64,000 bases of DNA from a virus (IMGVR_UViG_3300044833_000092:3541-67540); one strand, 5' to 3'; shown: positions 9,377 through 62,963, counted from the stretch's first letter. A program made the numbers and translations. The notes: generated from the sequence alone by a model not told the origin.

Positions 9377-9580
9377 ATGGTCAGCGTTGAAGAACGCATA
9401 CGCCAGCTCAAACAGGTGCCGCTTCTGGAAATCGAAATCGCCCGACTCAAGATTGAACTTGCCAGGGTGCAGCAGCGCCGCTGCGAGCTATGCCGGGAAA
9501 ACCAACAGCTCAAGACAGGTGGTGGAAATCCACCACCTGCTTCCCTTCGTGAACGAACGACGATGGCGGAGAATTTGTAA
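9377..9580 (+). CDS. Small coiled-coil protein containing motif A in frame
   Basis: AGGAGG SD; heptad-like IRQLKQ..LEIEIARLKIELARVQ. Confidence 0.55.
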   Translation: MVSVEERIRQLKQVPLLEIEIARLKIELARVQQRRCELCRENQQLKTGGGNPPPASLRERTTMAENL

Positions 9581-9694
9581 TGGGAAAAGGCCGTCCGCAC
9601 AACTTGGTTAACTTCAGCACGGACGAACTTATCGCCGAAATTAGAAAGCGAGGGGTGGAAAATTCCTAATTTATTTGCTGAAACCCCGGATGAC

Positions 9695-11986
9695 GTGGTT
9701 CTCATTGCCGATGGGTGGGGTCCAGTGTTGCGCTGGAACGGCTTCACCAATCAGGCGAGCCCGGCCGGCGTGCCGGCTCCGTCCAAGCTGCCGACCATGA
9801 CATTCTCCGGCACCGGCCCTATCGTCGGCGCGTACCGCTGCTTTCTGCGCTACATCGACGCCAACGATTACCCCGGCAACCTGACGCCCATCGCCCCGGC
9901 TGACGTGATTGCCCTGTCCCGCTCCGGTGTAGTCGCCAAGGCTGTGGCTGGCACGCCGATTGTATTGACCATCACGGCTCACGGATTCAATAATTCGACC
10001 ACCATCAAGACGACGGGCATCGCCGGCATCGTGGAGGCCAACGGCGTTTTCAAGGTGACGGTCATCGATGCCAACAATATCTCTCTCAACGGTTCGACCG
10101 CCGACGGGCTCAGCGAGTTCTACGGCGGCGGCGGGACTTGGATCGCCGGCACCGGCTTGGTGACGTACGGCAATCTGGAGGCTCCAGCGGACCCGCGAGT
10201 GGTGCGCCGTCAGATACTCCGCAACACCGATGGCCAGGAAGCGGTGTTCTACGTCGATATCGACACCACCGACCTGTCCAGCGCTACTCTTACCAGTACC
10301 CAGGACGACAACGCGCTCCAGACGGGCATCGCCGTGCCTTTTCTCGACTCCACTGGCAAGGACGTTTCCAATGTCAATGGCGAGCCGCCTAACAACAAGC
10401 CCTTGATCGTCTATCATCGAGGATTGGTTTTTATGGCTGGCGACGTGCGTTACACCGAGGGCGCTGTTGCCTTGACGTTCGGCTCCAATCAGGTGCATGG
10501 TATTGCAACGGAGTGGCGAGCGGCCGCGGCTGGCCGCTTCATCTACGTCGTCGGTGCGAACAAGGCGTACACGATTGCAGCCGTGGACGAGTTGAATCAG
10601 ATCGTCACCCTGACAGAGCCGTACCTTGCACCGTCGCAGCCGTACGCTTTCTATGCCATTTGTTCGGCCGAGCCGGATCAGCGCACCGTCTACTATTCCG
10701 ACGCCAGCCACGCCGAGGGCTTCTCGCCGCTTGTCGGCTTTACCATCGCCTCCGACGGCGACGACTTCACCGGCGAGTTGTCCTACGATTCGTTCCTCTA
10801 CATTCTGGAACGCTCGCATATCTACAAACAGACGTATCAAACCGATCCCAACACAGACGGTGCCGTCTACCAGAGTTCCGATCGCGGCTGCGTCAACCAG
10901 CGCTGCGCCGTTAAGGCGGGTGAGAGCGTCTACATGCTGGACGAGAAGGGCATTCACGCCTTTGGCGGCCGCAACGCCGGCGATCGCAGCGATCCGGTGC
11001 AGACGCTCTTTCGCCCAGACGTGCCGGGGCCGAAGATCAACTTCGCGGCGGGCCGTTTCTTTCACGGTGTCTTGGATCAGACGACCGAAGTTATACGCTG
11101 GTTCGTTTCGCTCTCGGGAACCTATCTCCCCCGCCACGCCATTTGCTATCAATACGATCTTGACCGCTGGTGGATCGAGGAGTATCCGTGGCCGATATCC
11201 TGCTCATTCGTCGGCCGCCTCTACCGCCGGGCTCCGCTGGAGACGTGGGGAGCCGGGCGCTTGCAGGTATTCCTGGGCTCGACCGGCCGCCGCGTGTTCG
11301 CCGTTGGAGCTTCGCCGCTCGACGGAGTGCCACCACTCAAGGAGTACGCCTGCCCCATCACGACCGCCGGGTTTAACTGGTTGGAAACGCCGTCAGCGCT
11401 GCCGCCGTGCGTCAATGCTCCAGTGGTGATTGTCGGCGGCCGTGGCAAAGGACAGCGGCGCATTGTGGTCTCTATGTCGGGAACGAGACTGCGCCTGCGC
11501 GATCCGTGGCTGGTGCAGCCCGACGTGACCAGCACCATTCAGGTTGGCGGTATCGAGTGGAGCTGGAAGTCTGGCTGGATGGAATGGGCTGACGAAGAGA
11601 CGACCAATCCGCGAGCGGTGGAAGTATCTTTCGGGCCTACGACGGTGCCCAGCGACGTGACCTTGAACCGCTTCCGTGACCGTAGCGATCAGGCTGACGT
11701 GATTGCTCTTGACCGTGCCGAGGACGGCGTGTTGGCTCGGGCCGGCGAGAGTGACGTATTGCTCTCGTTGGAACAGTTGCCGGGTGGCTTCGGACAGGCC
11801 CTGATGTTTTCGGGAAAGCAGTCGTACACTCGTGGGCCACAGGTTATCAGTGTGGGACTCAATGGTGTTGGCACCATCGATCCGGTGAAGCTCTATCAAA
11901 TCGACGTTGACGGCGTTGTCGATCCGACTGGAATCATTCCCGATCGTCAGCTGCGCCGCCAGGGCGAAGGCGGGGGAGGGGGATAG
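9695..11986 (+). CDS. Nozzle / DNA stabilisation (tail tubular B-like) protein with inserted beta domains; start uncertain
   Basis: Beta-propeller-type motifs (YHRGLVFMAG, VYYSD, DRGCVNQRC, VYMLDEKGIHAFGG, WSWKSGW); TAHGF...EANG FCCH-like insert. Confidence 0.7.
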   Translation: MVLIADGWGPVLRWNGFTNQASPAGVPAPSKLPTMTFSGTGPIVGAYRCFLRYIDANDYPGNLTPIAPADVIALSRSGVVAKAVAGTPIVLTITAHGFNNSTTIKTTGIAGIVEANGVFKVTVIDANNISLNGSTADGLSEFYGGGGTWIAGTGLVTYGNLEAPADPRVVRRQILRNTDGQEAVFYVDIDTTDLSSATLTSTQDDNALQTGIAVPFLDSTGKDVSNVNGEPPNNKPLIVYHRGLVFMAGDVRYTEGAVALTFGSNQVHGIATEWRAAAAGRFIYVVGANKAYTIAAVDELNQIVTLTEPYLAPSQPYAFYAICSAEPDQRTVYYSDASHAEGFSPLVGFTIASDGDDFTGELSYDSFLYILERSHIYKQTYQTDPNTDGAVYQSSDRGCVNQRCAVKAGESVYMLDEKGIHAFGGRNAGDRSDPVQTLFRPDVPGPKINFAAGRFFHGVLDQTTEVIRWFVSLSGTYLPRHAICYQYDLDRWWIEEYPWPISCSFVGRLYRRAPLETWGAGRLQVFLGSTGRRVFAVGASPLDGVPPLKEYACPITTAGFNWLETPSALPPCVNAPVVIVGGRGKGQRRIVVSMSGTRLRLRDPWLVQPDVTSTIQVGGIEWSWKSGWMEWADEETTNPRAVEVSFGPTTVPSDVTLNRFRDRSDQADVIALDRAEDGVLARAGESDVLLSLEQLPGGFGQALMFSGKQSYTRGPQVISVGLNGVGTIDPVKLYQIDVDGVVDPTGIIPDRQLRRQGEGGGGG

Positions 11987-11988
11987 CT

Positions 11989-12669
11989 ATGGGCATAGAG
12001 TCTTTTTTCGGCGCTCAGGCCGATCGCTTGCTCCGCAAAGAGTGGGGTGACGACGTGGACAGTTTCGCGCAGGAACTGGTGGCCATGTTCACGTCTAAGG
12101 AACCGATCAACCTGACCGGACCTGTGACAATCGATCGTGGGAACGCCGACAATGTTCCGGCACTCACGATCAACGATGGTACTAACGGCAGCTCAGCGCC
12201 GATCGTCATTAATCGTACCGATGGCACCGGCTCGTCGCAGCCAAACGTCGATAGCGGCGGCGGCTATTCATGCTGTGGCTCCAGTTCGCAAAATGCTCCT
12301 CCCAAGATGCCGCCGGTCGATCAAGGCAAATTCCCGCCGGTTCCACCTGTGACGCCGGCTGGACCTCCGGGCGGTCTGCCTGATCCCAACATGCCCAGGC
12401 GTGAGTTTAGCGGCACTATCCTGATAAAAGTCGTGCAGGGCGAGCCGGATGTCTTCGGCTGGAATGGTCAACAGGTGCCGTTCATAGCTACGGGCTGTGT
12501 CCCGTACAAGCCGCCATCGGTGAATGGCCCAACGAGTGCTTTCGATCCTAGCCTGAATCAGCCCGAGCCCGTCACGGCGCAGCTGGCGGCGTTCATGGCA
12601 AAGTGGAGTCTCGACGGTTACGATCTCATCGCCGACACCGTAGCCGGTCCCGGTTCTCCTTGTGCTTAG
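11989..12669 (+). CDS. Hypothetical virion-module protein
   Basis: SD and tight packing after the nozzle-like gene. Confidence 0.55.
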   Translation: MGIESFFGAQADRLLRKEWGDDVDSFAQELVAMFTSKEPINLTGPVTIDRGNADNVPALTINDGTNGSSAPIVINRTDGTGSSQPNVDSGGGYSCCGSSSQNAPPKMPPVDQGKFPPVPPVTPAGPPGGLPDPNMPRREFSGTILIKVVQGEPDVFGWNGQQVPFIATGCVPYKPPSVNGPTSAFDPSLNQPEPVTAQLAAFMAKWSLDGYDLIADTVAGPGSPCA

Positions 12670-12734
12670 GGCGAGCCGGACTATAATCTCAGGGGTGGTG
12701 GAAATCCACCACCTGAAAAACCAGGGGGCGTGCC

Positions 12735-14829: not shown

Positions 14830-15285
14830 ATGCCTAATTCTAACATTCCTCAAGCGCCGCCTCACGCCTTGCCGCCGGGCGGCAGGTTCGTTGAGCCTCC
14901 GTCTGCCGGCGGTCGGGTCATTCAACGATCGGCCGATGGAGGTTCCGTCAATGTCACGATGCCTGACGGCACGCTGCATCAGTGGGATGCAAGCGGCCCG
15001 CGGGGCTCGGCCGGCCGATACTTGGGCTCCTCTGACGGCGGCCAGCCGCAAGCTGGCCAGACTCAGTTGCCGTCGCCGCCAGCTGAAACCCAAGATCAGC
15101 AATTGACCCGCTTGGCGGCTTATCAGTTTGGCACCGCTAACAGATACTTGGCGAACGGGCCGCGTGTGCCGGGTCCGAGCGATGCGACTCTCGATGCCAA
15201 TGCTGCTGGCTTATGGGACAAGGCGTTCGCGGCGGTTCCGCTGCAATTGAATCCGGCAGCGTTTGGCCTCGGAGGACCACAGTGA
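14830..15285 (+). CDS. Hypothetical protein
   Basis: AGGTG SD; in operon. Confidence 0.5.
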   Translation: MPNSNIPQAPPHALPPGGRFVEPPSAGGRVIQRSADGGSVNVTMPDGTLHQWDASGPRGSAGRYLGSSDGGQPQAGQTQLPSPPAETQDQQLTRLAAYQFGTANRYLANGPRVPGPSDATLDANAAGLWDKAFAAVPLQLNPAAFGLGGPQ

Positions 15286-15366
15286 TGGCAGAAGAGAGTC
15301 AGTGGCTGACGAACCCACGATCGTCCAGTTTCAGGGTGGTGGAAATCCACCACCTGACCGGGAGGC

Positions 15367-15588: not shown

Positions 15589-16143
15589 ATGCCGCTTCCT
15601 CCGTTTCCTCCCGGTATGCCTCCCCCAGGTATGCCTCCTCCCGGTATGCCTCCTCCCGGTATGCCTCCTCCCGGTATGCCTCCTCCCGGTATGCCGCCGC
15701 CGGGCATGATGCCGCCAGGGCTGGGGCCGCCGCCCCTGGGGCCTCCCGGTATGCCACCGCCTGGAATGGGTGGCCCTCCAGGGATGGGTGGCCCGCCTCC
15801 AGGCATGGGCGGCATGGGTGGCCCACCGATGGACCCGGCGCTTATGGCGATGCTGGCGTCTATGCCGCCCGACGACGGCCCCGGTGGCGAAGCCGGCGGG
15901 ATCGGCGGCATGGACGGCTCGGGCATCGGCCCTCCCGGCTCGGGCGGCCAGCCGATGGACCCGGCGGTCCTGCAAATGATCGAGCAACTGATCGGCCCTG
16001 GCGGCCCTGGCGGCCCCGTACAGGGGCCTCGCGGTCCGGCGGGCATTCCCCCAGGCCCGGCCCCTCCAGGCCAGGGACAGCCAACCAGTGCGTGGCAACA
16101 GGCCCTTATGGGACTCGGGGCAGGGCCAGGGCTTGGCCGCTGA
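15589..16143 (+). CDS. Pro/Gly/Met-rich protein with GMPPP repeats
   Basis: AAGGAG SD; 15-bp tandem repeats about 15607-15705 with synonymous variation. Confidence 0.65.
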   Translation: MPLPPFPPGMPPPGMPPPGMPPPGMPPPGMPPPGMPPPGMMPPGLGPPPLGPPGMPPPGMGGPPGMGGPPPGMGGMGGPPMDPALMAMLASMPPDDGPGGEAGGIGGMDGSGIGPPGSGGQPMDPAVLQMIEQLIGPGGPGGPVQGPRGPAGIPPGPAPPGQGQPTSAWQQALMGLGAGPGLGR

Positions 16144-16673: not shown

Positions 16674-16723
16674 GGGTGGTGGAAATCCACCACCCTATTG
16701 CGGCGCACCAATAGGAGTTTTCT

Positions 16724-19700
16724 ATGTCGGTTGACTTCGACTCTCTCGTCGCCGATCCGTTCACTTACATCCGCAACAAACAAGCGATGGATCAACAGGC
16801 GGCCGCGGAACAGGACGCTGCCAACAAGAGCGCGATCGCGCAGCCGATGGGCCCGCAAGAGCAAGACGGTTTGCTCAAGCAGATGCTCGGGGCCGGAGCC
16901 TCGGGCCTGGGCTTCGTCGGCGGCACGCTCGGCAAGCTCTTCGGCGGCCGTGCCATCCGGGCCGGGCTCCAGGGCCTGACCGGCGGACCCATGAACTGGC
17001 GGGAACTGGCCAGCGTGATCCCCGGCTCCGACATTACCGGCCTCACCGATCCGGAACAGACCGTCACTGGCCGCAACCTGCTCGATCAGTGGGGCATGAC
17101 TTCGCCGACGACTCAGGACCAGCGCGGCACGTTCCAGTTGTCGGACCTGGCTGGCCCAGCCGTCGAAGCGGCCCTGGACCCGGCGACCTACCTGGCCTTC
17201 GGCGCTGGGGCCTCGACCAAGGCGGGACAGGCGGCCGAGCGGCTCGGGGTGCTGCCCAAGACGACGGCGGCCCGGATCGCCGGCTACACAGCGCCGGAGC
17301 AGATTGCCGCCAAGATGGGCATGACGCCGGCGGCCGCGGCTGCAAAAGCGGCCGAGGTTGGCGTCGATCTGAAGAGTCTGGTCGGCAAGCCGCTCGGCGG
17401 ACTTGTCGGCTTAAAATTGCCGTTCACGACGGCCGCGGATTCCGGGGCCATTCTCGGCACCGGCCCCTGGGCGCAGAAGGCGGCCGAAACGATCGGCACG
17501 CCATTCAAGTGGCTCGGCTCGACCAGGGCGGCCGACTACGCTCGGGCCATGTTCAACCCGGAGGCGCAGGGTCAGCCGTACGCCAGCACGCAAGCGGAAC
17601 TGATTGCCCAGGCCCCGTACACACGCACCGCCGGCGAGAACCTGCGGCGTGGGATCGGCGAGGCATACGATCCGCTCTTGGACTTCCGGGCCGCCGGTAC
17701 GCTGCCGCCGGAGTATGCTCCGATGGTGCGCGGCGCTGCTGAGGGCTTCGGCGTCCCAGGCCCGCAGCTTGAGGGTGTGAGCGATGCCATCGCCCAAGCG
17801 GCCGCCCAGGCGAGCGCCTTGAAGGATGCCGCTCGCCAGCGCTTCGAGTCCGCCGGCGGCCAGATCAGTTCTTGGGGCAGCGTGTTCCCAGACGTGCAGC
17901 ACTTCCCACGCTCGCCGACTCCGCTCGAAGTGCAGAGCCCCATCTTCCGCGGCAGCGGTCCTACGGAGAACCTGGGCAAGCAGTTCTACGCCGGCGTGCC
18001 CAACGCCATCCAGCGCAAGGATATTCTCGACTTGCCGGGCGGCACCGCTCAGGTCAACGAGTTGGTGCGGAACCCGGCGATCGGCACCAGTGCCCGCACC
18101 ATCGGGGCCGCCCCCGGCTCGCCGCTCGACAAGCTTATGAACGTGCCCGGTCACGCCGACGCCATCACCGCCAAGCTCCAGGCGGCTATGGGAGCTTTCG
18201 CCCCGGCCGACCAGTTGCAGATGCAGGCGCTCATGGCGGCCGACAAGGCGGGCTCTTTGGCCCCGGCCGACGCCGTGATCCTCGACGGGCTCCGCAAACA
18301 GTATCTGGCCAGCCGCGCTGCGATGATGGGTACGATCCGCGAGGACGTGCTTGGCATGAAGCCGGTGGACGTGACGCAATTGCTGGCGCTACGCAAGGCT
18401 CCTGGCCCACTGACGGCCGCGGACGCGGCCCGCTTGGCTGAGCTGGAAGGTATGGAGGCGAACGCCCGCATGATCGGCGGCCGCATGAGCCGCATGTATG
18501 CCGAGCGGGCCACTGGCACCCTGGGCGATCCGGCGGCCGATATCATCCCCGGCGTCAGTAGGAGCTTGCAAGACCGGGCGGCCGAAGAGTACCTGCGCTC
18601 GCAAGTGTTCCAGCTCGATCCGCAGCGGCTCGCCGAGTTGACCAACGAGGCCGGGCTCGATCCTGGCAGCGTGGCCGCCTGGGCCTCCTCGAAGCCTTCC
18701 GAGCGGGCCGCCACTCTCCAAGGACTCCAGATGCCGGGTAAGTCTGGCGTCGGTAATCTCATCAGCGAGACGGGTAGGATACTTACGCCGGCGGAGGCGC
18801 AGGAGCTTCTTTCGTCCGGCCACTTGGATCGCATCGCCCGGCCGCTGGCCAAGTACCTTGGCCAGCTCGATCCGCAGCGGCAGACGCGCGGCCTGTTCTC
18901 CAACGATCCGTTCTCCGACTTGCTCCGATACGGCGAGTCGATGGTCAAGGGCACTGAGAAAGCCGACGTGGTGACGAACGTGCTGGGCCGCAACGCTGCC
19001 TTCGGCGGGGCTGGCAACGTCAAACTCCAGCCGCTCTTGAAGGAGTTGAAGCTCAATACGCCAGTGGCGCAAGCCAGGATCATGGAGCAGATGAATGCCG
19101 CCGGCGGCTTGCCCGGCGGCGTTGCCGGCAAGCTCGGGGACATTGGCAAGGCCAGGGTGAGTCCGCAGATTGCCGAGGCCATTCAGGCGCTCAACCCGCG
19201 CACCAAGATGCCGGAGTACATCAAGCCGACGCTCGCGGCCATCGATCAGGCCACCGGGGCCACCCGCGCCGCTCTGACCTATCCCTGGCCGTCGTTCCAC
19301 GTCCGCAACCTTGTGACCGATGAAGTCAACTCTCTGATGCGCGTTGGACCCGGCGGCATCAAGTGGGGGCCGACGGCGCAGGCGCTGAGCCAGGGCAAGA
19401 ACCCCGAAGCGCTGTTGAGTCTGCCGATGATCCAGCGGCTGGGCATCACAGACCCGGCCGAAGCGGCTCGTGTCGTTGGCCGCGAGGCGTTCGCTACCCA
19501 GGCGTTCGGCCGCGGCCAGGGCCGGCTGACCACTGAGGGGATGCAGTCGGCCGAGCGTGGCATTCTGCCGGCGATCCCCGGCGCGATTCCTTCGGCATCC
19601 CTGGCCGACATTGGCAGCGGCAAGGTACTGCCCAAGGATTGGAGCTTCAACCCGGCCAGGACCGAGGGCATCCTTGGCCAGACCGAGACGAAGTTTGCTC

Positions 19701-20614
19701 CTGGCGTACTCGGCCGAACCGCGGCCGATTGGGAGGATACCACCGCTCGCGGCGGCTTGTTCCTGCACTTGCTGGAACAGGACTACACTCCCGCGGCCGC
19801 TCGGGCCATTGTCGATAAGACCGTCTACGGCGGCGCTCAGTTCACGCCGTTCGAGAAAGGTTTCGTGCGCCGGCTGATGCCGTTCTACGGCTACACCAAG
19901 TACGTCATTCCCCAGCAGTTGACCAACATCGCCAATTACCCTGGCGGCCTTGCTGCCCAGGGCATCCGCATGGCCAATGCCCAGCGGGATCAGGCCGGCT
20001 ACCTGCCGGAGTATCTTGCTGGCGGCTTGGCCATCCCGATCGGCCAGCAGGAGGACGGCACGCAACGCTACCTCTCCAAGCTCGACATGCCGTGGGAAAT
20101 GCCGTTCAACATGGTGAAGCCGGGCGGTAACGTATCCTCGACCATCACCGGCACCGGCATGGGCCTCCTGGGCCAGATGAATCCATTGCTCAAGGGCGCT
20201 CTGGAGGTTGCGACCAATCGTCAGTTCTACACTGGCCGCGATCTGGATACGCTTCAGCGCACGCTGACCGGCGTGCCGGCGATCGACAACCTGTTCTACA
20301 ACAGTCCGGCAGCGCGCGTTTTGACGACCGGCGGCACTCTGGCCGACGTGCGCAAGGACGTGCCAACGAAGCTGCTGGGATTGACGACGGGAGTTAAGCT
20401 GACCGATGTAGACATGAACCGCGAGCGTGCCTTTGGTACGCTCGCGGCCGTGAAGGATTATTTGGCTCACGATCCAAACGCTGCCCAGCACGTCAACTAC
20501 ACACCGGCGAAGGGGCAGGAGTTAACGCCCCAAGAAGTGCAGGTGTTCCAGTTGCTCAAGCAGTTGCAGGCCCAGGCGACTCACGCCGCGGCCGCGGCCA
20601 AGAAGGGCGGATAG
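16724..20614 (+). CDS. Large internal virion / ejection protein (large polyvalent protein-like)
   Basis: 1296 aa, Ala/Gly-rich; FHVRN, RRLMPFYGY, NPLLKGALEVATNRQFYTGR motifs typical of large ejected proteins. Confidence 0.7.
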   Translation: MSVDFDSLVADPFTYIRNKQAMDQQAAAEQDAANKSAIAQPMGPQEQDGLLKQMLGAGASGLGFVGGTLGKLFGGRAIRAGLQGLTGGPMNWRELASVIPGSDITGLTDPEQTVTGRNLLDQWGMTSPTTQDQRGTFQLSDLAGPAVEAALDPATYLAFGAGASTKAGQAAERLGVLPKTTAARIAGYTAPEQIAAKMGMTPAAAAAKAAEVGVDLKSLVGKPLGGLVGLKLPFTTAADSGAILGTGPWAQKAAETIGTPFKWLGSTRAADYARAMFNPEAQGQPYASTQAELIAQAPYTRTAGENLRRGIGEAYDPLLDFRAAGTLPPEYAPMVRGAAEGFGVPGPQLEGVSDAIAQAAAQASALKDAARQRFESAGGQISSWGSVFPDVQHFPRSPTPLEVQSPIFRGSGPTENLGKQFYAGVPNAIQRKDILDLPGGTAQVNELVRNPAIGTSARTIGAAPGSPLDKLMNVPGHADAITAKLQAAMGAFAPADQLQMQALMAADKAGSLAPADAVILDGLRKQYLASRAAMMGTIREDVLGMKPVDVTQLLALRKAPGPLTAADAARLAELEGMEANARMIGGRMSRMYAERATGTLGDPAADIIPGVSRSLQDRAAEEYLRSQVFQLDPQRLAELTNEAGLDPGSVAAWASSKPSERAATLQGLQMPGKSGVGNLISETGRILTPAEAQELLSSGHLDRIARPLAKYLGQLDPQRQTRGLFSNDPFSDLLRYGESMVKGTEKADVVTNVLGRNAAFGGAGNVKLQPLLKELKLNTPVAQARIMEQMNAAGGLPGGVAGKLGDIGKARVSPQIAEAIQALNPRTKMPEYIKPTLAAIDQATGATRAALTYPWPSFHVRNLVTDEVNSLMRVGPGGIKWGPTAQALSQGKNPEALLSLPMIQRLGITDPAEAARVVGREAFATQAFGRGQGRLTTEGMQSAERGILPAIPGAIPSASLADIGSGKVLPKDWSFNPARTEGILGQTETKFAPGVLGRTAADWEDTTARGGLFLHLLEQDYTPAAARAIVDKTVYGGAQFTPFEKGFVRRLMPFYGYTKYVIPQQLTNIANYPGGLAAQGIRMANAQRDQAGYLPEYLAGGLAIPIGQQEDGTQRYLSKLDMPWEMPFNMVKPGGNVSSTITGTGMGLLGQMNPLLKGALEVATNRQFYTGRDLDTLQRTLTGVPAIDNLFYNSPAARVLTTGGTLADVRKDVPTKLLGLTTGVKLTDVDMNRERAFGTLAAVKDYLAHDPNAAQHVNYTPAKGQELTPQEVQVFQLLKQLQAQATHAAAAAKKGG

Positions 20615-20967: not shown

Positions 20968-21121
20968 AATGAGTCCTCCAAGAATGGGCCGGGAAATGAC
21001 GATGGCGGGGATGTTGCCGAGGCACCCCCGCCACCTAGCGTTCCTATTCCGATACCGACCGGAAGTCAGAGCGCTGAGAACAGTATAGCAACAAGGGTGG
21101 TGGAAATCCACCACCCTTGTT

Positions 21122-23253: not shown

Positions 23254-23464
23254 GATTCCCCTCCGTAGAGGGGTGGTGGAAATCCACCACCCCTGGATTT
23301 CGTTCAGTCCGTGTGGCGAAAGTCGTGGGCCGTGGCTAACGGAACCGGCCGCCGCCAAAGGAACGCTTCAACCCGCTCGCTGCCCTCATCGACAAGCTCG
23401 GCCGTGAAGCCGTAGCGTTTGAGTGCATCGCGCAGGTGGCTGTTGAGTACGTCGTACAAGCCTA

Positions 23465-26503: not shown

Positions 26504-26583
26504 CGGACCCTCCGTTTGCAAGGGTGGTGGAAATCCACCACCTGACCTGAAAGCTATTGCGGCGCACCAATAGGCGGACGAGT

Positions 26584-27273
26584 CTACACAATCTTGATCG
26601 CCTTGTCCATCAGGCCCTTGCGGACGATCTTGTCCAGTTGCTCGTCCTCGGCCACCATGTAGGCGCAGTCGCAGCCGTAGCACTTGGCCTTAACGATCAG
26701 TTCGTTTATGAGCATCTGTTCGCAGATATAACCGGCCCATTCGCGGACGATCGGCGTGGTGAACCGGCCGTCGTTCAGTTCCTGCCAGACGGCTTCCTCG
26801 CTTAGCACCGGCATGAAGCCGGGTCGCTTGGACTTCAAGACCAAGTGGTAGGTGTTGAACCCCAAGCTGTGGGCAAACGCTTCGTAGCCGTAAGGCGAGC
26901 GTGTGAATGACGCCCCTGGAGCAATGCCGCTGCTGTAGTTACCGTCGCTGTGATCGACCCACAATTGGAACGTCACCTTGGGACTGTAGGCCACCGCCCG
27001 CAGAGCCTTGATAGAGCCCTGTGGACCGGCCACGCTCAGGTAGAGCAATTCTCTGCTGTAGTCCCTGGTGACGGCAGCGGCGTCGAAGGCGAAGCTGTGT
27101 TCGCATTCGGTGGCTGTGATTCTGAGTTGCCGGGTTTCTCGGCTGACGCTTCGAGTGGCGCTTCCAGCGCTGCTGCTGGGTTCTCGTCCAGGCCGTAGCC
27201 CGCCGGCATCTTGCCCGAGTGCAGGAGAATCTCGTACTCCTGTGCGTAAGTGCTGACTGTCATTAGCGACCAC
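26584..27273 (-). CDS. Conserved protein of methyltransferase-helicase modules; start unclear
   Basis: YLSVAGPQGSIKAL...FTTPIVREW; 5' part overlaps the recombinase and lacks a clear start. Confidence 0.55.
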   Translation of the reverse strand: MVANDSQHLRTGVRDSPALGQDAGGLRPGREPSSSAGSATRSVSRETRQLRITATECEHSFAFDAAAVTRDYSRELLYLSVAGPQGSIKALRAVAYSPKVTFQLWVDHSDGNYSSGIAPGASFTRSPYGYEAFAHSLGFNTYHLVLKSKRPGFMPVLSEEAVWQELNDGRFTTPIVREWAGYICEQMLINELIVKAKCYGCDCAYMVAEDEQLDKIVRKGLMDKAIKIV

Positions 27274-28549: not shown

Positions 28550-28583
28550 GGCGATTCTCCCAGGTGGTGGAAATCCACCACCC

Positions 28584-30170: not shown

Positions 30171-30249
30171 GTTCGTAGCTCCTGTAGAAGAGGGGTGGTG
30201 GAAATCCACCACCCCTCGGGTGTGACCTTCTATTGCGGCACCGCAATAG

Positions 30250-40786: not shown

Positions 40787-40798
40787 GCGAAAACCCTC

Positions 40799-43558: not shown

Positions 43559-43617
43559 GGCCGGCAGGGCCGGCAGGGCCGGCAGGGCCGGCAAGGCCGG
43601 CAGGGCCGGCAAGGCCG
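43559..43617. repeat. 9-bp tandem repeat GGCCGGCA(G/A), about 6.5 copies
   Basis: Directly visible. Confidence 0.9.
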
Positions 43618-44151
43618 CAGAAAGGGCCGCCCCGCGGCCGTGTCGCCCTGCGACCAGACCGGAGGATGCTATGCGGCTTAGTCGGGAAACGTAGTCGATT
43701 TCACCCATATCAAGATCGAGTGGAGCGGACTGTAGATTCGCTGCTTAACGCGCGTGGCCAGGCGGGCAGGCGCGTGGCCACCCGTAGGCCCCCATCGCCT
43801 CCTCCCAGGTGTCACTACTCCTCGCCGAGATTTTTCCTTATGTCCCTTCGGTCCCTCGGGGCTACGGCGTAGCGTTTCTTCACGTCCGCGGCGTGTGGTT
43901 CCGTCAGGTGGTGGAAATCCACCACCTGCCCTCTTTGTTCGCCAGCGAACATTTCCCTTTCTCTCGCTTCGCTCGGCGTCCCGCTCACCGCTTCGCGTTC
44001 CTCATGTCCTGTCGTCCGGTGGACGATGCTCACGGCTTCCGTCAACGCTCCACTCCATGACTCAGACCGCGTAGCCAGTTTGCCGCATTTTTGGGTACTT
44101 ACACCCACAAGCACTTTGCTCATTTGCCCTCTCACCATCAGGAGGTCACTC

Positions 44152-45648
44152 ATGTTTTCGTCCTTCGGCTTCGCGTCCTCAGCGTTGCCCGTACTGGCGG
44201 TGGCTCTCGCTCTCTTCTACCTGCTCGGCAACCTGGACCTGTCGTCAGCCATTGCGTCGGCTGGCGATGCCGTTGTGGAGACGGGCGACTTCCGCTCCGG
44301 TACGGAACGTGTCCTTCCCGCTGGCGGTGGCGGGCCGACTCCTGCCGCGGCTCCCGCTCCTGCTGGAGGCGGGGCACAAGGCAGGGCACCAGCACCCGGA
44401 CAACCCGGCAGCACAGGCAGGACGCCGGCGGGAGGCCCGCAAGGTGGACAGCTGGCCCCGGCGATGGGCCAGCCTGGACCCGCGGCCGCGGGCCAGCCGC
44501 GTCCGGCCGGTCAGCCGCCCGCCCCTGGGCAACTGCCGGGCCAGGGCCAGCCGCAGCCCCAGCCGGCAGGTGGTGGAAATCCACCACCCCAGCCGGGAGG
44601 CCAGCAGGGTCAATGGGCTCTGCGTAACGAGCTTCAGCGGCTTGGCTGGGACGTGAGCGGCTTTACGGACGATGCTTCGGCGTGGCAGGCGTTGTCGGGC
44701 CGGCTGGCCCAGCAGCAGCAGGTCAACCAGCAGATGGCGGAGTACGCCCGCTGGGGGCAGTATTACGTCGCCAACCAGCGGCAGATTCAGGAAGCCCTTG
44801 CCAGGGGCCAGGGCCAGCCCACTCCTGTTCCGACGCCGGGTTCTCCGGGTTCGGTTGGCGGGGCGGCTCAGCAGGAAGATTGGTGGAAGGCCCCCGCCTG
44901 GAATCCCGAGAATGAAAAGTACATCAGCTTCGATCCGGCTACCGGGGCTCCGGTCGTGCCGATCGGCATGGACCCGTCGATCGCCAAGCAGTACCTGGAC
45001 TACAAGACGTGGCAGCGCGAGACGGTGGAGAAATTCTTCCGCGATCCGATCGGCACGCTCAAGCCAGGGCTGGAGCAACTGATCCGGTCCGAGGCTCAGA
45101 AGATCGCTGGCCAGCAGGTGGCCGGCTACGGCGATCAGCAGTTCGCTCAGAACTACGTCGCTTCGCAGCCCTGGATGTTCGCCAAGGATCAGGCGGGCAA
45201 CGTCCAGACCGATTACCTGGGCCAGCCGCTCCTGACGCCGGCGGGCAGCAAGTTCAAGCATTACCTCGAATATGCTCAGCGCTCCGGCATTCAGGACATT
45301 CGGGCTCAGCAACAGTGGGCCTACGGCATGGTTGAGCGCGATGCCCTTGCGTGGCAGCTTCAGCAGTATCAGGCCGGTCAGCAACCGGGAGGCCAGCCGG
45401 GTGGGCCGGCCCCGGCCGCTGGTCAGCCGGGCGCTCAGTTGACGCCGCAGCAGATTCAGCAGCAGCAACAGCAAGCGGCCCTGAACCTGGGCGGAGCAAG
45501 GCATATCCCCGGCAGCGGAGCCCAGGGCAACAACCCGGCCCCGACGCCGGGCAACGGCGGCGTGCCTCGAAAGCCGATCGGTCGCAATGCCCTGGTCAAC
45601 CGCCTTCAGGGTGCCCTTCAGGAAAAGGGCATCACGCAACTGAATTAG
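44152..45648 (+). CDS. Capsid scaffolding protein with hydrophobic N-terminal leader
   Basis: AGGAGG SD; P/G/Q-rich linkers, helical core, directly upstream of the capsid gene. Confidence 0.7.
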   Translation: MFSSFGFASSALPVLAVALALFYLLGNLDLSSAIASAGDAVVETGDFRSGTERVLPAGGGGPTPAAAPAPAGGGAQGRAPAPGQPGSTGRTPAGGPQGGQLAPAMGQPGPAAAGQPRPAGQPPAPGQLPGQGQPQPQPAGGGNPPPQPGGQQGQWALRNELQRLGWDVSGFTDDASAWQALSGRLAQQQQVNQQMAEYARWGQYYVANQRQIQEALARGQGQPTPVPTPGSPGSVGGAAQQEDWWKAPAWNPENEKYISFDPATGAPVVPIGMDPSIAKQYLDYKTWQRETVEKFFRDPIGTLKPGLEQLIRSEAQKIAGQQVAGYGDQQFAQNYVASQPWMFAKDQAGNVQTDYLGQPLLTPAGSKFKHYLEYAQRSGIQDIRAQQQWAYGMVERDALAWQLQQYQAGQQPGGQPGGPAPAAGQPGAQLTPQQIQQQQQQAALNLGGARHIPGSGAQGNNPAPTPGNGGVPRKPIGRNALVNRLQGALQEKGITQLN

Positions 45649-46866: not shown

Positions 46867-46900
46867 CCCCAGGTGGTGGATTTCCACCACCTGGGGTTTA
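46867..46900 (+). terminator. Motif A hairpin with extended stem after the capsid gene (possible terminator/attenuator)
   Basis: CCCCAGGTGGTGGA-TT-TCCACCACCTGGGG then TTT. Confidence 0.45.
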
Positions 46901-48142: not shown

Positions 48143-48214
48143 CCTTGCCCAAACGGCCGGGATGGCTTAGAACAGGTGGTGGAAATCCACCACCTGTTTC
48201 TTTTGGAGCCACCC

Positions 48215-49821: not shown

Positions 49822-49891
49822 GGTGGTGGATTTCCACCACCCTACCCTACTGCCGGGTTTCCCAGGTGTTTTCGCCCATTGGAGGACAGTT

Positions 49892-53636: not shown

Positions 53637-53730
53637 TTTCAGGTGGTGGATTTCCACCACCCCTCCGCGGCCAGCCTATTGCGACGCCGCAATAGGCTGG
53701 CCGTTTCCTTACCCAATCAAGGAGTCAACC

Positions 53731-53983: not shown

Positions 53984-54931
53984 GTGAACCTTATTCCCTT
54001 TCCGACTGAAATGCCGGACGACGCCTTGAGCGTCGTCGCCGCCTATCTGCGCGGCAATGGCAACACCGCCGAGGCCCTGCAAGCCGCCTGGATGGCCCAG
54101 GGCTTCATAATGGGCTCGGTCATTGGCAGCTACACGCCGCCAGTGCCGCCGCCAGTGGCGGGAGCCGGCCAACTCACCGGTGGCGATCCGCGTTTCTATG
54201 AGACGCCGCCCCATCCGCTGGCTCAGGCCCAGGCCCAGGTAGCGGCCATGACGAACGAGCAGCGGGCCGATTACCTCGAACACTTGATCCGTACCAAGGA
54301 CAAGAACGTCTCCACGATCGGCTCCCAGGGATCGCAGCACGCCATCTTCGGAGCCGGGGGCACCTTCAATTGGGGCAACGCCCTGGCGATCCTGTTCAAG
54401 ATCATCAACGATATTGTCGCGGGCGGCGGCTTCGGCCTGGGGATTCTGGTTCCCAATCCACCCGTAACACCCGGCGTCCCGGTGGCACCGGGGGCACCGC
54501 CGCAGATTGGTGCCCCTCCGCCGGCGGCGGCTCTCGATCAGAACCGCGGCTACACCGGCCACGCGGCCGGTGGCGTCGATCCCAGCTCGGGCCAGCGCCA
54601 GGATTCGACGCGGGAGCGCAGGCTTCTTCCGGGCGAGCCGCCACCTCCGGCACCGGGCACCTATCCGGCCGGCGTTGCGCCGGCGGGTCAGCAACCGTAC
54701 CAGCCACAGCCAGGGTCTGGCCCTCACTTCCCGAGGGCCAGCGATCCGTCGCCCGGCTCCGGACCCACTGGCGCGGTATGGCGCGAGCCGCCTCCAGGCC
54801 AGGGCGGCCCGGTGGGCAACCCGCCGCAAGGCAACCCGCCGCAAGGCAACCCGCCGCAAGGCAACCCGCCCCTGGGCGGCCAGCCGCACCGCGACAGCGG
54901 CCCCGGCGATGCCATTGGCGGCAACAGGTGA
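53984..54931 (+). CDS. Hypothetical protein with P/G-rich tail (GNPPQ repeats)
   Basis: AGGAG SD; 15-bp repeats 54815-54871. Confidence 0.6.
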   Translation: MNLIPFPTEMPDDALSVVAAYLRGNGNTAEALQAAWMAQGFIMGSVIGSYTPPVPPPVAGAGQLTGGDPRFYETPPHPLAQAQAQVAAMTNEQRADYLEHLIRTKDKNVSTIGSQGSQHAIFGAGGTFNWGNALAILFKIINDIVAGGGFGLGILVPNPPVTPGVPVAPGAPPQIGAPPPAAALDQNRGYTGHAAGGVDPSSGQRQDSTRERRLLPGEPPPPAPGTYPAGVAPAGQQPYQPQPGSGPHFPRASDPSPGSGPTGAVWREPPPGQGGPVGNPPQGNPPQGNPPQGNPPLGGQPHRDSGPGDAIGGNR

Positions 54932-55049: not shown

Positions 55050-55092
55050 GGCAGGGTGGTGGATTTCCACCACCCTGCCCTTTTCTTTTTTC
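55050..55092 (+). terminator. Intrinsic terminator built on motif A
   Basis: 14-bp stem GGCAGGGTGGTGGA/TCCACCACCCTGCC followed by CTTTTCTTTTTT at the end of the capsid operon. Confidence 0.7.
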
Positions 55093-55874: not shown

Positions 55875-56828
55875 ATGACTCAGTCACCAGAAGTGGAAGA
55901 ACTCATCAAGCGGTTAGCGGCCCCGTTCACGCCGGCTCAAATCAAATTCAAGCCGCAGAGCGTCAACAAAGAAAAAACCCGCGCTCTGGCACTGGCATAT
56001 ATCGACGGCCATGCCGTTAAGGGAAGGCTCGACGAAGCTGTCGGCGTGGCGGGATGGCAAGACTCTTACGAAGTCCTAGACGATCGTTCTGTCAAATGCA
56101 CTTTGCGCGTCAAGATCGGCGACGAATGGATCACCAAGGAAGACGCCGGCGGTGCGAGCGATCAAGAGGACAAAGGCGACCGCATGAAGGCCGCCTTCAC
56201 TGACGCACTGAAACGTGCCGCCGTCAAGTTCGGCATCGGCCGCTTCCTCTACGAGTTGCCGAAGAATTGGTGGCCATACGATCCGGTGAAGAAAACCTTC
56301 GTCGGCACGCCCAATCTGCCGGCGAGCTTCTACCCTGACGGCAAGATACCGCGGCAGCAGCAGGCCCCGCAACAGCAACAGCAACAAGGTGGTGGAAATC
56401 CACCACCTGCCCAAGCGGCAGCGCCGCCTCCAGCGGCCAACCCGAAGCCCCCGGCGTCAGCGCCGGCGGTGAAGACGCCGGATGCACCGCCGGACAAACC
56501 ACCATCTGCCCCAAAGCCGACTGTTACGGTCCCAGCGGCGGCGGGGACAGGTGGTGGAAATCCGACACCTGCTCCGGCCCAGGCCAAGCCCAGGGTCCAG
56601 GCCCAACGGGCAGCGACGGCGCAGCTCGATGAGATCAACAATCTCTGCGGCGACCTGCGCTACGATCTGCCCTGGTTGCAGAATGCCCTGATGGAGAAGT
56701 TCGGCAAACAGGAGCCGGCCGACCTGACCGCCCTGGAGGCCGACGTTGTTCTCAAAGGATTGAAGCTGGCCCTATCGAAGAAAGGAGGCGCACCGACCGC
56801 AACCGCACCGAAGAAAAGTGGCTTTTGA
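55875..56828 (+). CDS. Rad52/Rad22-family single-strand annealing protein
   Basis: LAAPF...ALAYID...RLDEAVG...KEDAG...KAAFTDALKRAAVKFGIGRFLY. Confidence 0.9.
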   Translation: MTQSPEVEELIKRLAAPFTPAQIKFKPQSVNKEKTRALALAYIDGHAVKGRLDEAVGVAGWQDSYEVLDDRSVKCTLRVKIGDEWITKEDAGGASDQEDKGDRMKAAFTDALKRAAVKFGIGRFLYELPKNWWPYDPVKKTFVGTPNLPASFYPDGKIPRQQQAPQQQQQQGGGNPPPAQAAAPPPAANPKPPASAPAVKTPDAPPDKPPSAPKPTVTVPAAAGTGGGNPTPAPAQAKPRVQAQRAATAQLDEINNLCGDLRYDLPWLQNALMEKFGKQEPADLTALEADVVLKGLKLALSKKGGAPTATAPKKSGF

Positions 56829-56862: not shown

Positions 56863-57708
56863 ATGTCAGCGACAGAAACACCCGAAGCGCCCGCGGCCGC
56901 AACCGAAACCCCCAAGGGCTCGGAACTGATCGAGAAGTCCGCCATCTTCAAGTACGGCAATCGCACGTTCAAGATTCCGTACGTCAAGCTGGCCGATCCT
57001 CTCACCAAAGAGGAAGACAAGGATCTTGAGGAATCGATCAAGGCCCTGGGCGTCATTCACGCCGTCGTCGTCACCGAGGACAATACGGTCCTGGCCGGCC
57101 ACAATCGCCTGATGAAGGCGAAGAAGCTTGAGATTCCCCTCAAGGACGTGCCCATTCAAGTGCGCAAGCGGGACGCCGGCACGGAAGAGCAGATCGAGGT
57201 TGCCTATGCGTCCAATTTCATTGGCCGCAAGTTCACTCCCGAGCGGCGGGCGCACGCCGCCCATATGCTCGCCAAGCTGGACTTCTCCGCCCGGCGGATC
57301 GCCAAGGTGATTGGCGTCCATCACACCACCGTCATCGATGACCTGAGCAAGGCCGATCCGTTCGCCCTGCCCGAGGAGGAGGAAGAGGAGGAGGCAACGG
57401 AAGGCGGCGAGGCGGCTACGAACGGTGCAGCGGCTGGAGGCAAGAAGAAAGCCAAGAAGGGAGGCAAGGATTTCGTCATCGGCTCGGACAACAAGAAGCA
57501 TCCCAAGAAGAAGAAACGGAAAGCCAAGTCGGCTGACCAGGAAGTCGTGGCCAACCAGCGGGCGAAACTCGTGCGCCGCAAGTGGAAGAAGAACGCCATC
57601 ACGGCCATCGGCTTGCTGGTCCGCTCCCTCGATCGCTTGGGGATCGGCGAGAAGCACGCGGCCAAGCTCCAGGCGCTCATGGACGAGGTTCGCGCCGTCG
57701 AGCTGTAG
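56863..57708 (+). CDS. ParB/Srx N-terminal domain protein with HTH
   Basis: LEESIKALGVIHAVVV...LAGHNRL; SARRIAKVIGVHHTTVIDDL. Confidence 0.8.
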   Translation: MSATETPEAPAAATETPKGSELIEKSAIFKYGNRTFKIPYVKLADPLTKEEDKDLEESIKALGVIHAVVVTEDNTVLAGHNRLMKAKKLEIPLKDVPIQVRKRDAGTEEQIEVAYASNFIGRKFTPERRAHAAHMLAKLDFSARRIAKVIGVHHTTVIDDLSKADPFALPEEEEEEEATEGGEAATNGAAAGGKKKAKKGGKDFVIGSDNKKHPKKKKRKAKSADQEVVANQRAKLVRRKWKKNAITAIGLLVRSLDRLGIGEKHAAKLQALMDEVRAVEL

Positions 57709-60618: not shown

Positions 60619-60839
60619 TGGCTGGGGCCATTAGATAGCGGCATTTAATTCAGTGGCAGGTGGTGGATTTCCACCACCCTGGGGACAATGACATGATGCG
60701 GTTCCCACGAATGCCCGGCTGCGAGACGGGCTGGGAAAGCCATCTCGCATGGGCGGTGGCATTCTGCACGCTGGCGTGGGCAGCAATCTCGTTCGTGGCT
60801 GTGACGGCCTGGGTAGTCTTTCACTGGTGAGGTAACGCT

Positions 60840-62252: not shown

Positions 62253-62291
62253 AAAAAAGGAACCCGCCGGTCATAACCTCCGGCGGGTTCC
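62251..62291 (-). terminator. Intrinsic terminator on the minus strand
   Basis: 12-bp perfect stem GGAACCCGCCGG/CCGGCGGGTTCC with U8 tail on the minus strand. Confidence 0.8.
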
Positions 62292-62305
62292 AAAAACGCG
62301 AGACG

Positions 62306-62344
62306 GCAGACATGCAGACATGCAGACATGCAGACATGCAGACA
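62306..62344. repeat. 8-bp tandem repeat GCAGACAT, about 5 copies
   Basis: Directly visible. Confidence 0.95.
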
Positions 62345-62358
62345 CCCATAACAACACC

Positions 62359-62387
62359 ACTTTACGGCGTTGCACGTCTGCCGTCAA
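62359..62387 (-). promoter_or_regulatory. Sigma70-like promoter TTGACG-17-TAAAGT
   Basis: Near-consensus -35 and -10 with 17-nt spacer. Confidence 0.6.
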
Positions 62388-62714
62388 TACCCCACGAAAG
62401 AAAAATCGCTGCCTTGATTGCAGCAACGGTACGGTAGCGGACGCCGCTGAGTAATGCGTCCGGACCGAGCGGGCCGGGGCCATCAGACCCTGGATAGCAA
62501 AACAACATCGGCTAACTGCCGGACCCCGTTGCGGATTTGACCGTTCCCAAGCCTCTCCCTTCTAGGGGGTAGGGGGTAGTCCGTCTAGTGGCCGGGAAGC
62601 GCAGCGGACCGGCACGGTGTCCTTTGCTATGGGCACCGCCCCTCTTCCTGCTCTGAGCGAGGAAGACCCGGCAGCATGATGTGATTCGATCTCTCTTGAA
62701 TAAGGACGAGTCCA

Positions 62715-62963
62715 ATGGCTGACAAACGCCGCCTGACGCCCGAGGAGCTTGCCATCGCCGTGAAGTGCTACGTCGCTGGCAACACGCCCCTGGACAGACT
62801 GCCGTACACCTTCGAGTTTGACGACCTCTGGCAGCGTGTCAACGCCGGCTTGAAGGTGCCACTCTCGAAGAACGAGCTATGGCTGGTCTTGTCCAACGCC
62901 CGCAAGATCAAGAAGCTGCCGGCGCTGCGCAAGCGGGGTGGTGGAAATCCACCACCCTTGTAA
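62715..62963 (+). CDS. Hypothetical protein ending in motif A (GGGNPPPL)
   Basis: AAGGA SD; LDRLPYTFEFD...NARKIKKLP. Confidence 0.6.
   Translation: MADKRRLTPEELAIAVKCYVAGNTPLDRLPYTFEFDDLWQRVNAGLKVPLSKNELWLVLSNARKIKKLPALRKRGGGNPPPL

Follow-up and report, generated by a model that had tools for sequence, protein, structure and literature searches.

A dispersed palindrome in a soil phage genome, read in a single frame as a Gly/Pro linker peptide, as a probable hairpin-forming signal at gene boundaries

How does a short palindrome come to be written, in one and the same reading frame, into six coding positions of a phage genome, and is it the DNA or the encoded peptide that is kept there? The palindrome, motif A, is carried by a 67.5-kb (67,540 bp) uncultured orphan soil phage with terminal repeats, of which a stretch of 64,000 nucleotides, referred to below as the window, was analyzed. 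It comprises 22 bp, R-GGTGGTGG-AAAT-CCACCACC-Y, with GGTGGTGGAAATCC as its 14-mer core. The core occurs 29 times in the window against 0 expected (100 shuffles), all 29 matches being exact in a search that tolerated one mismatch, and 30 times across the whole record; allowing up to three mismatches in the 20-mer yields no extra locus (52 strand-hits, corresponding to the same 29 loci). Fourteen nucleotides, loop included, are identical in 30/30 copies, and all 13 substitutions fall at positions 15-19: the 5' arm is invariant, and the 3' arm differs in seven copies. The 3' arm variant CCGACACC, with the same two substitutions each time, is present in five copies, four of which cluster at 32.4-41.1 kb. 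Every copy has R at position -1 and Y at position +21; these flanks pair with each other in 15 copies, with no excess over the ~15 expected by chance. The conserved unit is 20-22 bp long. The exact 20-mer has no match in IMG/VR; elsewhere it is found only as unrelated single copies, 12 in metagenome contigs and 6 among the 185,579 species genomes scanned, in none of which it is multi-copy.

Six of the 30 copies lie within ORFs and, as the initial annotation had claimed, all six are read in the sense direction in frame 0, the peptide being GGGNPTP for the copies at 32420 and 56550 and GGGNPPP for the other four. The probability that six copies share one of the six orientation and frame states by chance is 1.3e-4, and counting only ORFs with homologues, 4/4 copies are still sense and in frame 0. 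The reality of the host ORFs, on which the claim depends, is borne out: 5/5 are called by outside pipelines too, and 3/5 have homologues. The first copy (9518-9537, plus strand) encodes GGGNPPP 14 codons upstream of the stop of a 67-aa ORF (9377-9580, plus strand), which is called by the JGI and Logan pipelines and in which GC3 falls from 0.66 ahead of the motif to 0.50 in the tail that follows. On the minus strand, the copy at 32420-32439 has the CCGACACC 3' arm and lies in a 104-aa ORFan (32362-32676), annotated as a gene by the database pipeline, for which a homologue search returned only itself. The copy at 44569-44588 (plus strand) encodes residues 140-146, within a P/Q/G-rich stretch, of a 498-aa ORF (44152-45648, plus strand) without a family match, which lies immediately upstream of the major head gene and is a putative scaffold protein from that position alone. 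Its orthologue P0122 (46% identical) aligns from residue 27, which indicates that the ORF is real at full length. Two further copies, 56388-56407 (GGGNPPP, residues 172-178) and 56550-56569 (GGGNPTP, residues 226-232, CCGACACC), both on the plus strand, fall within the same linker of a 317-aa Rad52/Erf-like single-strand annealing protein (55875-56828, plus strand), the identity of which had been correctly proposed (PF04098, 2.6e-16; phrog_1097, 2e-37). Finally, the copy at 62937-62956 (plus strand) provides the terminal residues, GGGNPPPL-stop, of an 82-aa ORF (62715-62963, plus strand) belonging to a real small-protein family with 72 homologues.

The in-ORF copies are confined to unconserved linkers or C-terminal tails, in agreement with their earlier description; among 57 Rad52-like homologues, identity is 0.12-0.15 at the linker copy positions versus 0.57 in the N-domain. 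The GC3 over predicted genes is 0.77, and the A/T-ending codons of the motif are indeed rare (shares: GGT 0.12, GGA 0.10, AAT 0.27, and CCA 0.13). Given the peptide, the motif codon string has a probability of 5.9e-6 per copy, a likelihood that had been suggested for computation. The GNPPQ repeats at 54815-54871 (plus strand), named as an internal control, use the common codons GGC AAC CCG CCG CAA. The rare codons of the six copies are identical to those of the 24 intergenic ones, and GGGN in the predicted proteome is motif-encoded in 6/6 cases, with no other occurrence. Because these rare codons are shared and no other sequence encodes GGGN, it is the nucleotide motif that dictates the peptide: the conserved unit is the DNA signal, not the protein segment. 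This supports the earlier proposal that a nucleotide motif is kept inside genes where a flexible linker tolerates it.

In the orthologue P0122, GGGNPPP is absent; therefore, at least the site at 44569 is not ancient. At the protein level, the Rad52-like orthologue P0002 contains GGGNPPPAQ at the equivalent linker spot, and the three nearest homologues of the 82-aa protein (P0129, P0131, and P0163) have the C-terminus (G)GGNPPVD. These four carriers are distant relatives (~40-55% protein identity), and the peptide at their equivalent places would argue for long retention of the sites. Motif A might then be an old, clade-wide phage signal whose GGGNPP footprint is left at equivalent linker and tail positions, which we advance only tentatively. 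In sense frame 0, the GGN arm is read as Gly and the complementary CCN arm as Pro, and both T-A stem pairs (bases 3-18 and 6-15) connect third codon positions; therefore, hairpin and peptide could persist together as the stem co-varies. If this is true, selection on DNA or RNA structure in coding sequence outlasted the near-saturation of the surrounding gene, and such signals could be traced from protein databases alone.

Although coding sequence makes up 88% of the window, 24/30 copies are intergenic. They mostly lie at gene boundaries, in many cases 0-7 nt past a stop codon and 13-50 nt ahead of the next start. Several neighbor a second palindrome, motif B, which has 19 copies, none in a CDS, and whose reading frames contain, as judged by eye, a stop codon or bulkier residues. 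Minus-strand intergenic copies of motif A are found at 1850-1869 (13 nt past a stop, four additional stem pairs), 5521-5540 (1 nt past a stop, followed by motif B), 46872-46891 (11 nt past the major head gene, 13-bp stem, -29.2 kcal/mol), 49822-49841 (beginning right after a stop codon), 53642-53661 (followed by motif B), 55055-55074 (13-bp stem and T run, the clearest intrinsic-terminator form), and 60659-60678. Those on the plus strand are located at 8431-8450 (3' arm variant CCACCGCC), 12694-12713, 15335-15354, 16675-16694 (abutting motif B, upstream of a 1296-aa ORF), 21096-21115 (six additional stem pairs, terminator-like on both strands), 23272-23291 (flanked by minus-strand genes), 26523-26542 (adjoining motif B), 28563-28582 (1 nt past the stop of a minus-strand gene), 30194-30213 (adjoining motif B, four additional stem pairs), 33472-33491 (3' arm variant CCGCCATC), 34186-34205 (CCGACACC), 36825-36844 (CCGACACC), 39233-39252 (terminator-like on the transcribed, minus strand), 41049-41068 (CCGACACC, abutting motif B), 43907-43926 (in a 781-bp non-coding region separating divergent operons), and 48175-48194 (12-bp stem, then a T-rich tail). 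Long open frames cross some intergenic copies too in this GC-rich genome (e.g., frame 0 at 28563 and 43907); they were set aside, as they overlap better-supported genes or have a GC3 that is not coding-like, and one of them, ORF 43754-44074, is missing from the protein collection.

Perfect cores fold into GC-rich hairpins of -18 to -29.5 kcal/mol (z -3.8 to -6.3). The stem is lengthened by at least two Watson-Crick pairs in 11/24 intergenic copies (P = 6e-5) and by at least three in 8/24 (P = 4e-7), the extensions having a different sequence in each copy. Two CCGACACC copies without extra flanking pairs, at 34186 (-9.7 kcal/mol, z -0.6) and 32420 (-10.9 kcal/mol, z -1.1), are no better in energy than shuffled sequences, yet the 14-mer is kept in both. 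Of the 27 copies within the 60 kb scanned (the copies at 60659 and 62937 lie outside), 5 resemble intrinsic terminators, with a T-rich tail after the stem on the strand that is transcribed, so that a T/U run is not characteristic of the motif. A pure terminator role, against which the initial annotation had also argued, is unlikely because of this small number of terminator-like copies and because the weak-folding CCGACACC retains the 14-mer. With respect to transcription, the intergenic copies divide into 17 antisense and 7 sense, whereas the in-ORF copies are sense in 6/6 cases (Fisher P = 0.003). Such mixed orientation is awkward for an RNA signal acting in one sense.

The reading that we prefer (probability of about 0.6) is that motif A acts at the nucleotide level as a hairpin-forming punctuation element at gene boundaries that a sequence-specific factor recognizes. 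It would probably act through transcript attenuation or through the protection or processing of 3' ends, and a few copies, in which flanking pairs lengthen the stem and a T run follows, might serve as full terminators. The Gly/Pro reading in sense frame 0 may do no harm, which would explain why copies within ORFs persist; those at 9518, 32420, and 62937 could be gene-end copies through which the ORF reads.

Alternatively, a dimeric phage regulator could bind motif A as a duplex-DNA operator, the ~30 palindromes forming a global silencer, a roadblock, or a genome organizer, which we consider rather unlikely. The in-frame copies would then be real operators where the protein tolerates them, and the candidate binder would be a putative ParB-like/HTH-like protein (56863-57708), adjoining the Rad52-like gene. 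Dispersed operator palindromes have a parallel in the KorB OB sites of plasmid RK2. The invariance of 14 nt including the loop, the half-site R-GGTGGTGG with R/Y fixed and without co-variation, and the retention of weak-hairpin variants are all consistent with an operator; the chance-level pairing of the R/Y flanks and the weak folding of CCGACACC fit duplex DNA better than a hairpin. The sites are also independent of the direction of transcription, with 15 consecutive intergenic copies on one absolute strand. However, in a symmetric dimer site both arms would be expected to decay, whereas substitutions affect the 5' arm of no copy and the 3' arm of seven; stem extension through variable complementary flanks is unexpected for a protein site; and the binder is weakly assigned (phrog_6218, 2.3e-10, with Pfam ParB_N and HTH_23 matches under cut-offs). 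The closest precedent comes from Cluster O mycobacteriophages, whose 17-bp palindromes the operator would also resemble. As described in the available text of PMC4351075, these repeats (TGTTCGG-NNN-CCGAACA) number more than 30 per ~70-kb phage genome, have invariant inverted arms and an AAA/TTT spacer, are mostly intergenic with about a third coding, are missing from the host and other phages, have an unknown function, and occur in phages with ParB-like proteins. Motif A likewise consists of 30 invariant, dispersed, phage-specific inverted repeats with an A/T spacer, both inter- and intragenic, in a genome encoding a putative ParB-like protein. It differs in its 8-bp arms and 4-nt spacer, in the one frame and orientation of its in-ORF copies, which encode a Gly/Pro linker peptide (that text states no frame rule for Cluster O), in a 3' arm that varies when the 5' arm never does, and in the many copies extending into long hairpins. 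Sequence and host are unrelated, and the likeness is therefore one of kind, not of homology. Stoperators of Cluster A mycobacteriophages are likewise short and scattered over a phage genome, ~30 of them in narrow gaps between genes, but according to the same text they are asymmetric and oriented with transcription, whereas motif A is palindromic and of mixed orientation.

Less probable still is a selfish mini-palindrome of the REP or RPE (Rickettsia palindromic element) kind, spread by copying and surviving where it is harmless, whether in intergenic gaps or, read in frame, in disordered linkers. REP/BIME elements are short GC-rich palindromes that occur as several families side by side and affect mRNA ends; REPs are extragenic by definition and dependent on a RAYT transposase. 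Motifs A and B are similarly intergenic palindrome families side by side; motif A is also found in ORFs, and no Y1/HUH (RAYT) transposase is present among the 18 Pfam families matched by the 91 predicted window proteins (the first 3.5 kb of the genome contain the terminase gene and a 159-aa ORF without a Pfam match). The identity of the copies, with no decayed one within three mismatches, speaks for such spreading, as do the clustered CCGACACC copies, which suggest copying or gene conversion, and the empty site in P0122. Against it stand the flanks of the 30 copies, in which no target-site duplication is seen (a 4-nt direct repeat only at 5521), a unit of merely 20-22 bp and not a ~100-150 bp element with terminal inverted repeats, the lack of many host-chromosome copies in the species genomes and of any match in IMG/VR, and the peptide at equivalent positions in distant orthologues. 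The suggested likeness to RPEs thus stands as an analogy: in both, a palindromic family lies in frame within unrelated ORFs and adds a conserved peptide that leaves the protein intact, as far as PMC10969869 describes it, and here 6/6 in-ORF copies are tolerated in frame 0. It does not extend to mobility, since RPEs are bacterial chromosomal elements of ~150 bp regarded as MITE-like (PMC10969869), whereas motif A is a short, mostly intergenic phage motif without a mobile-element hallmark. It is very improbable that selection acts on the protein, with GGGNPP as a short linear motif (e.g., a docking site) and DNA identity secondary: the peptide recurs in P0002, P0129, P0131, and P0163 from other contigs, but 24 copies are untranslated, the six coding copies are identical at every synonymous site, and the peptide is missing from 118/120 listed Rad52-like proteins (carriers: the query P0001 and P0002) and 69/73 listed small-family members. 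Hardly any weight is given to the GGTGGTGG arms as Chi-like sites on both strands that protect or recombine linear phage DNA. The octamer presumably resembles the Chi-type GCTGGTGG and is present on both strands of every perfect copy; however, it occurs outside the motif 3 times versus 2.75 expected, and Chi function would not account for the invariant loop and flanks.

The frame rule itself recalls DNA uptake sequences, which are likewise nucleotide motifs in genes with a reading-frame bias, located at poorly conserved residues and inflating the peptides they encode (available text of PMC2817400). These sequences, 9-12 nt long, function in transformation; a bacterial genome contains hundreds to thousands of them, and the frames they favor use preferred codons (Findlay and Redfield 2009, PMC2817400), whereas the 30 copies of motif A belong to a phage and are read in rare codons.

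The 14-mer GGTGGTGGAAATCC matches the window (bases 3541-67540 of the virus record) at 29 sites, all of them exact although one mismatch was allowed, and at none in 100 shuffles; the whole 67,540-bp record contains 30 copies (22 forward and 8 reverse). Alignment of the copies yields the palindrome GGTGGTGG-AAAT-CCACCACC, referred to as motif A, and a search of the window with the 20-mer, with three mismatches allowed, returned no extra loci. Perfect 20-mers constitute 22 of the 29 window copies. The remaining seven deviate solely in the 3' arm, which reads CCGACACC in five copies (32420, 34186, 36825, 41049, and 56550), CCGCCATC at 33472, and CCACCGCC at 8431. Bases 1-14 are invariant in all 30 copies, each of which is preceded by a purine and followed by a pyrimidine. 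Four of the five CCGACACC variants are located within 8.7 kb (32420-41068) and the fifth lies at 56550; the clustering points to copying over short distances, to gene conversion, or to a separate class of site.

Six copies fall within ORFs and, as observed in the initial annotation, all six are in sense orientation and in frame 0, being read as GGGNPPP at 9518, 44569, 56388, and 62937 and as GGGNPTP at 32420 and 56550. The probability that all six share a single state, out of six combinations of orientation and frame, is 1.3e-4. The predicted genes have a GC3 of 0.77, and the codons used by the motif hold small shares of their families (GGT 0.12, GGA 0.10, AAT 0.27, and CCA 0.13); the codon-usage likelihood proposed earlier as a check gives P = 5.9e-6 for the motif A codon string given the peptide. 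The predicted proteome contains GGGN at six places, in every case written by motif A, while GGG outside the motif is most often written GGCGGCGGC (11 of 38). The GNPPQ repeats at 54815-54871, cited previously as an internal control, are indeed written GGC AAC CCG CCG CAA. The rare codons and the encoding of GGGN by the motif alone show that conservation lies in the nucleotide motif and not in the peptide, and support the earlier inference that the motif is selected or inserted at the nucleotide level.

The six possible readings of motif A are GGGNPP, VVEIHH, WWKSTT, GGGFPP, VVDFHH, and WWISTT, of which GGGNPP alone constitutes a typical flexible linker. The codons for Gly (GGN) and Pro (CCN) are each other's reverse complement, which explains this Gly/Pro reading; in frame 0, third codon positions are linked by the two T-A stem pairs (bases 3-18 and 6-15). 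A second dispersed palindrome of the same phage, motif B (CTATTG-N8-CAATAG), has 19 copies, none of them in a CDS. By inspection, TAG closes one of its frames per strand, the remaining frames encoding bulkier residues. This poorly translatable palindrome, absent from genes, serves as an internal control. It is very probable that the nucleotide motif imposes the peptide and that genes accommodate the motif in no other frame and nowhere but in flexible segments. Motif A provides a clean natural case in which a nucleotide signal prevails over codon choice and a fixed heptapeptide is written into unrelated proteins.

The ORFs were called with a self-trained codon model, by which 88% of the window is coding. 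The Rad52/Erf-like gene (55875-56828), which contains two copies, matches PF04098 (2.6e-16) and phrog_1097 (2e-37) and has 1029 homologues at E <= 0.001 (8000 candidates scored). The scaffold-like ORF of 498 aa (44152-45648) is situated just upstream of the major head gene (phrog_9953), and its 555-aa orthologue P0122 aligns from residue 27 with 46% identity over 412 columns. The Logan pipeline predicts the same 498-aa product, whereas JGI gives a 331-aa form starting at 44653, downstream of the motif; the Logan call and the orthologue favour the longer, motif-containing form. For the small ORF at 62715-62963, the search gave 72 further family members at E <= 0.001. The boundaries of the two remaining ORFs (9377-9580 and 32362-32676) are identical in the calls of outside pipelines; their GC3 is about 0.5 in the tail after the motif versus 0.66-0.68 before it, and the homologue search with 32362-32676 returned itself alone. 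Should these two not be genes, the frame-0 reading would still apply to all four copies left, which lie in three supported genes. Inspection by eye revealed no slippery-site frameshift signal upstream of the in-ORF hairpins.

The positions of the copies are consistent with weakly constrained segments. In an alignment of 58 Rad52-like proteins, both motif-encoded heptapeptides occupy columns with 0.12-0.15 identity to the query, compared with 0.57 in the N-domain; the linker that contains them is rich in Pro, Ala, and Gln and connects the Rad52 domain to a C-terminal domain common to few homologues. The scaffold-like copy is placed within a P/Q/G-rich stretch, and the other three lie 0-19 codons upstream of the stop. 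Judging from composition and alignment, the linker segments are presumably disordered. Among the 120 Rad52-like matches listed, the peptide is confined to the query and its homologue P0002. In P0002 the Rad52 domain is immediately followed by GGGNPPPAQ, which matches the first Rad52-like copy at all nine residues, within a linker that does not align otherwise; another homologue, P0003, has GGGSPPA at that position. Of the 73 small-ORF family members listed, four contain the peptide, namely the query itself plus the three members nearest to it (P0129, P0131, and P0163), whose C-termini read (G)GGNPPVD; 11 further aligned family members are without it. The comparison of orthologues suggested in the initial annotation gave, at the level of protein sequences, a divided result: the peptide recurs in P0002, P0129, P0131, and P0163 and does not occur in the scaffold-like P0122. 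The peptide-carrying homologues were not found in IMG/VR. If this possible footprint is nucleotide-driven, protein databases could be mined for hidden DNA or RNA signals.

Of the 24 intergenic copies, eight begin 0-7 nt past a stop codon, and most lie 13-50 nt upstream of the next start. Perfect copies have folding energies of -18 to -29.5 kcal/mol. Intergenic stems are extended by at least two Watson-Crick pairs in 11 of 24 cases (P = 6e-5) and by at least three in eight (P = 4e-7), with differing sequences and with the fixed purine/pyrimidine flank allowed for. Only five of the 27 copies in the 60 kb scanned (21096, 39233, 43907, 48175, and 55055) were flagged as resembling terminators on the strand that is transcribed. 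With respect to the direction of transcription, the intergenic copies divide into 17 antisense and 7 sense, as against six of six sense in ORFs (Fisher P = 0.003). Fifteen consecutive intergenic copies (genome 11,971-47,447, window 8431-43907) are forward whatever the gene direction, a pattern (permutation P = 0.0016) inseparable from the gene-block structure; outside this interval, minus-strand copies predominate. The run of forward copies raised the idea of a replication-linked strand rule, which was set aside: the GC-skew turning points fit only one of the two switches (maximum near 5 kb of the window), and gene strand is a confounder.

The overall account, in which motif A is a nucleotide-level signal, is given a probability of about 0.6. 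As to its role, we tentatively propose that the motif could act as a hairpin-forming punctuation signal recognized by a sequence-specific factor, a suggestion somewhat short of even odds. Its main rival is a duplex-DNA operator. Two points favour such a site over a hairpin: the purine and pyrimidine flanks pair at the chance rate (15 of 30), and the 14-mer is retained in all five CCGACACC copies, though in two of the three that were folded (34186 and 32420, at -9.7 and -10.9 kcal/mol) the core hairpin is no better than shuffles. The third, at 56550, reaches -23.3 kcal/mol (z -3.5) by using extra flank pairs. The next alternative is a selfish element. As to mobility, no target-site duplication is present at the motif A copies and no Y1/HUH transposase family occurs among the 18 Pfam families matched by 91 predicted proteins. 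A Chi-like site was rejected, as GGTGGTGG outside motif A is found three times versus 2.75 expected. Rfam returned no family and the tRNA scan no hit.

The nearest precedent is the 17-bp repeat of Cluster O mycobacteriophages, described in PMC4351075 as present in 34 copies whose 7-bp arms do not vary and whose spacer is AAA/TTT, one third of them in coding regions, absent from the host and other phages, and of unknown function. Unlike that repeat as it is presented there, motif A follows a strict frame rule and may have left a peptide footprint in distant relatives. Rickettsia palindromic elements are likewise in-frame palindromes, but they measure ~150 bp and are regarded as mobile (PMC10969869). 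A general precedent is offered by uptake sequences, DNA motifs that select certain frames and poorly conserved residues inside genes (PMC2817400). Motif A is new in that it obeys a strict single-frame rule giving Gly and Pro, in that its two arms are conserved asymmetrically, and, possibly, in the peptide footprint suggested by the distant homologues. With motif A, the unexplained class of dispersed phage palindromes gains a representative from an uncultured soil phage.

IMG/VR contains no exact match to the 20-mer; there, a 17-mer gave 13 single-copy rows and a wobble-degenerate 20-mer at least 114, with no multi-copy contig among the matches listed. The exact 20-mer occurs only as 12 single unrelated copies in JGI metagenome contigs and as six, about the chance level, in one genome each of 185,579 species; such single copies are unrelated and mostly ordinary hairpins. 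The phage itself is an orphan: an 8-kb blastn query had no match among 50,697 phage records, and IMG/VR offers no close relative of the major head protein or of the large terminase. The Rad52-like protein led to distant loci only (L009-L014, L033, and L034), none with a dispersed repeat, and P0002 had no match in 401 genomes of the phylum of locus L031. One of the distant loci, the unrelated IMG/VR phage L012, which has a Rad52-like gene, carries at 15030-15285 a 15-bp unit (GCCAACTTGTCACGC-like) repeated in tandem; the array resembles iterons and is not dispersed.

Among sequencing runs, one DNA run labelled soil metagenome, perhaps the source sample, contains the phage, and no RNA run is listed. 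The contigs of the DNA run show no variant at any motif A site, and their joints have sides of 20-24 letters, which fit repeats. The phage ends in direct terminal repeats measured at 127 bp. Many Rad52-like homologues are named from Gemmataceae MAGs, and the host is, by these names, possibly a planctomycete. The genome encodes an SU10-type portal, a T4-type terminase N-domain, a serine recombinase (27036-28010), two helicases and a primase, a UDG-family protein, a DUF1064 resolvase, and a methyltransferase. A ParB-like protein (56863-57708; phrog_6218, 2.3e-10, with sub-threshold HTH matches) is encoded directly downstream of the Rad52-like gene with its two motif copies and is a candidate motif A binder.

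Motif B is an imperfect palindrome whose 19 intergenic sites span 5545-53676 (e.g., 5545, 16695, and 36383); it frequently adjoins a Shine-Dalgarno sequence (..CAATAGGAG) and is sometimes in tandem with motif A, in either order. The 781-bp non-coding region between divergent minus-strand and plus-strand operons (43371-44151) contains a run of GGCCGGCAGG-like 10-mers and several GACAGGGCCGGCC hairpins, and may be an origin or control region. At 15589-16143, an ORF starting at 15589 opens with a (PPGMP)n repeat built from a repeated CCTCCCGGTATGCCT unit; although the gene was called from 15805, the longer form is likely the real one. The ORF at 16724-20614 (1296 aa) has the highest coding score in the window and matches no Pfam or PHROG family. 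A strong terminator-like site (A-run/hairpin/A-run) opens the 462-bp gap at 62253-62714, and tandem repeats of the form (CAGACATG)n come after it.
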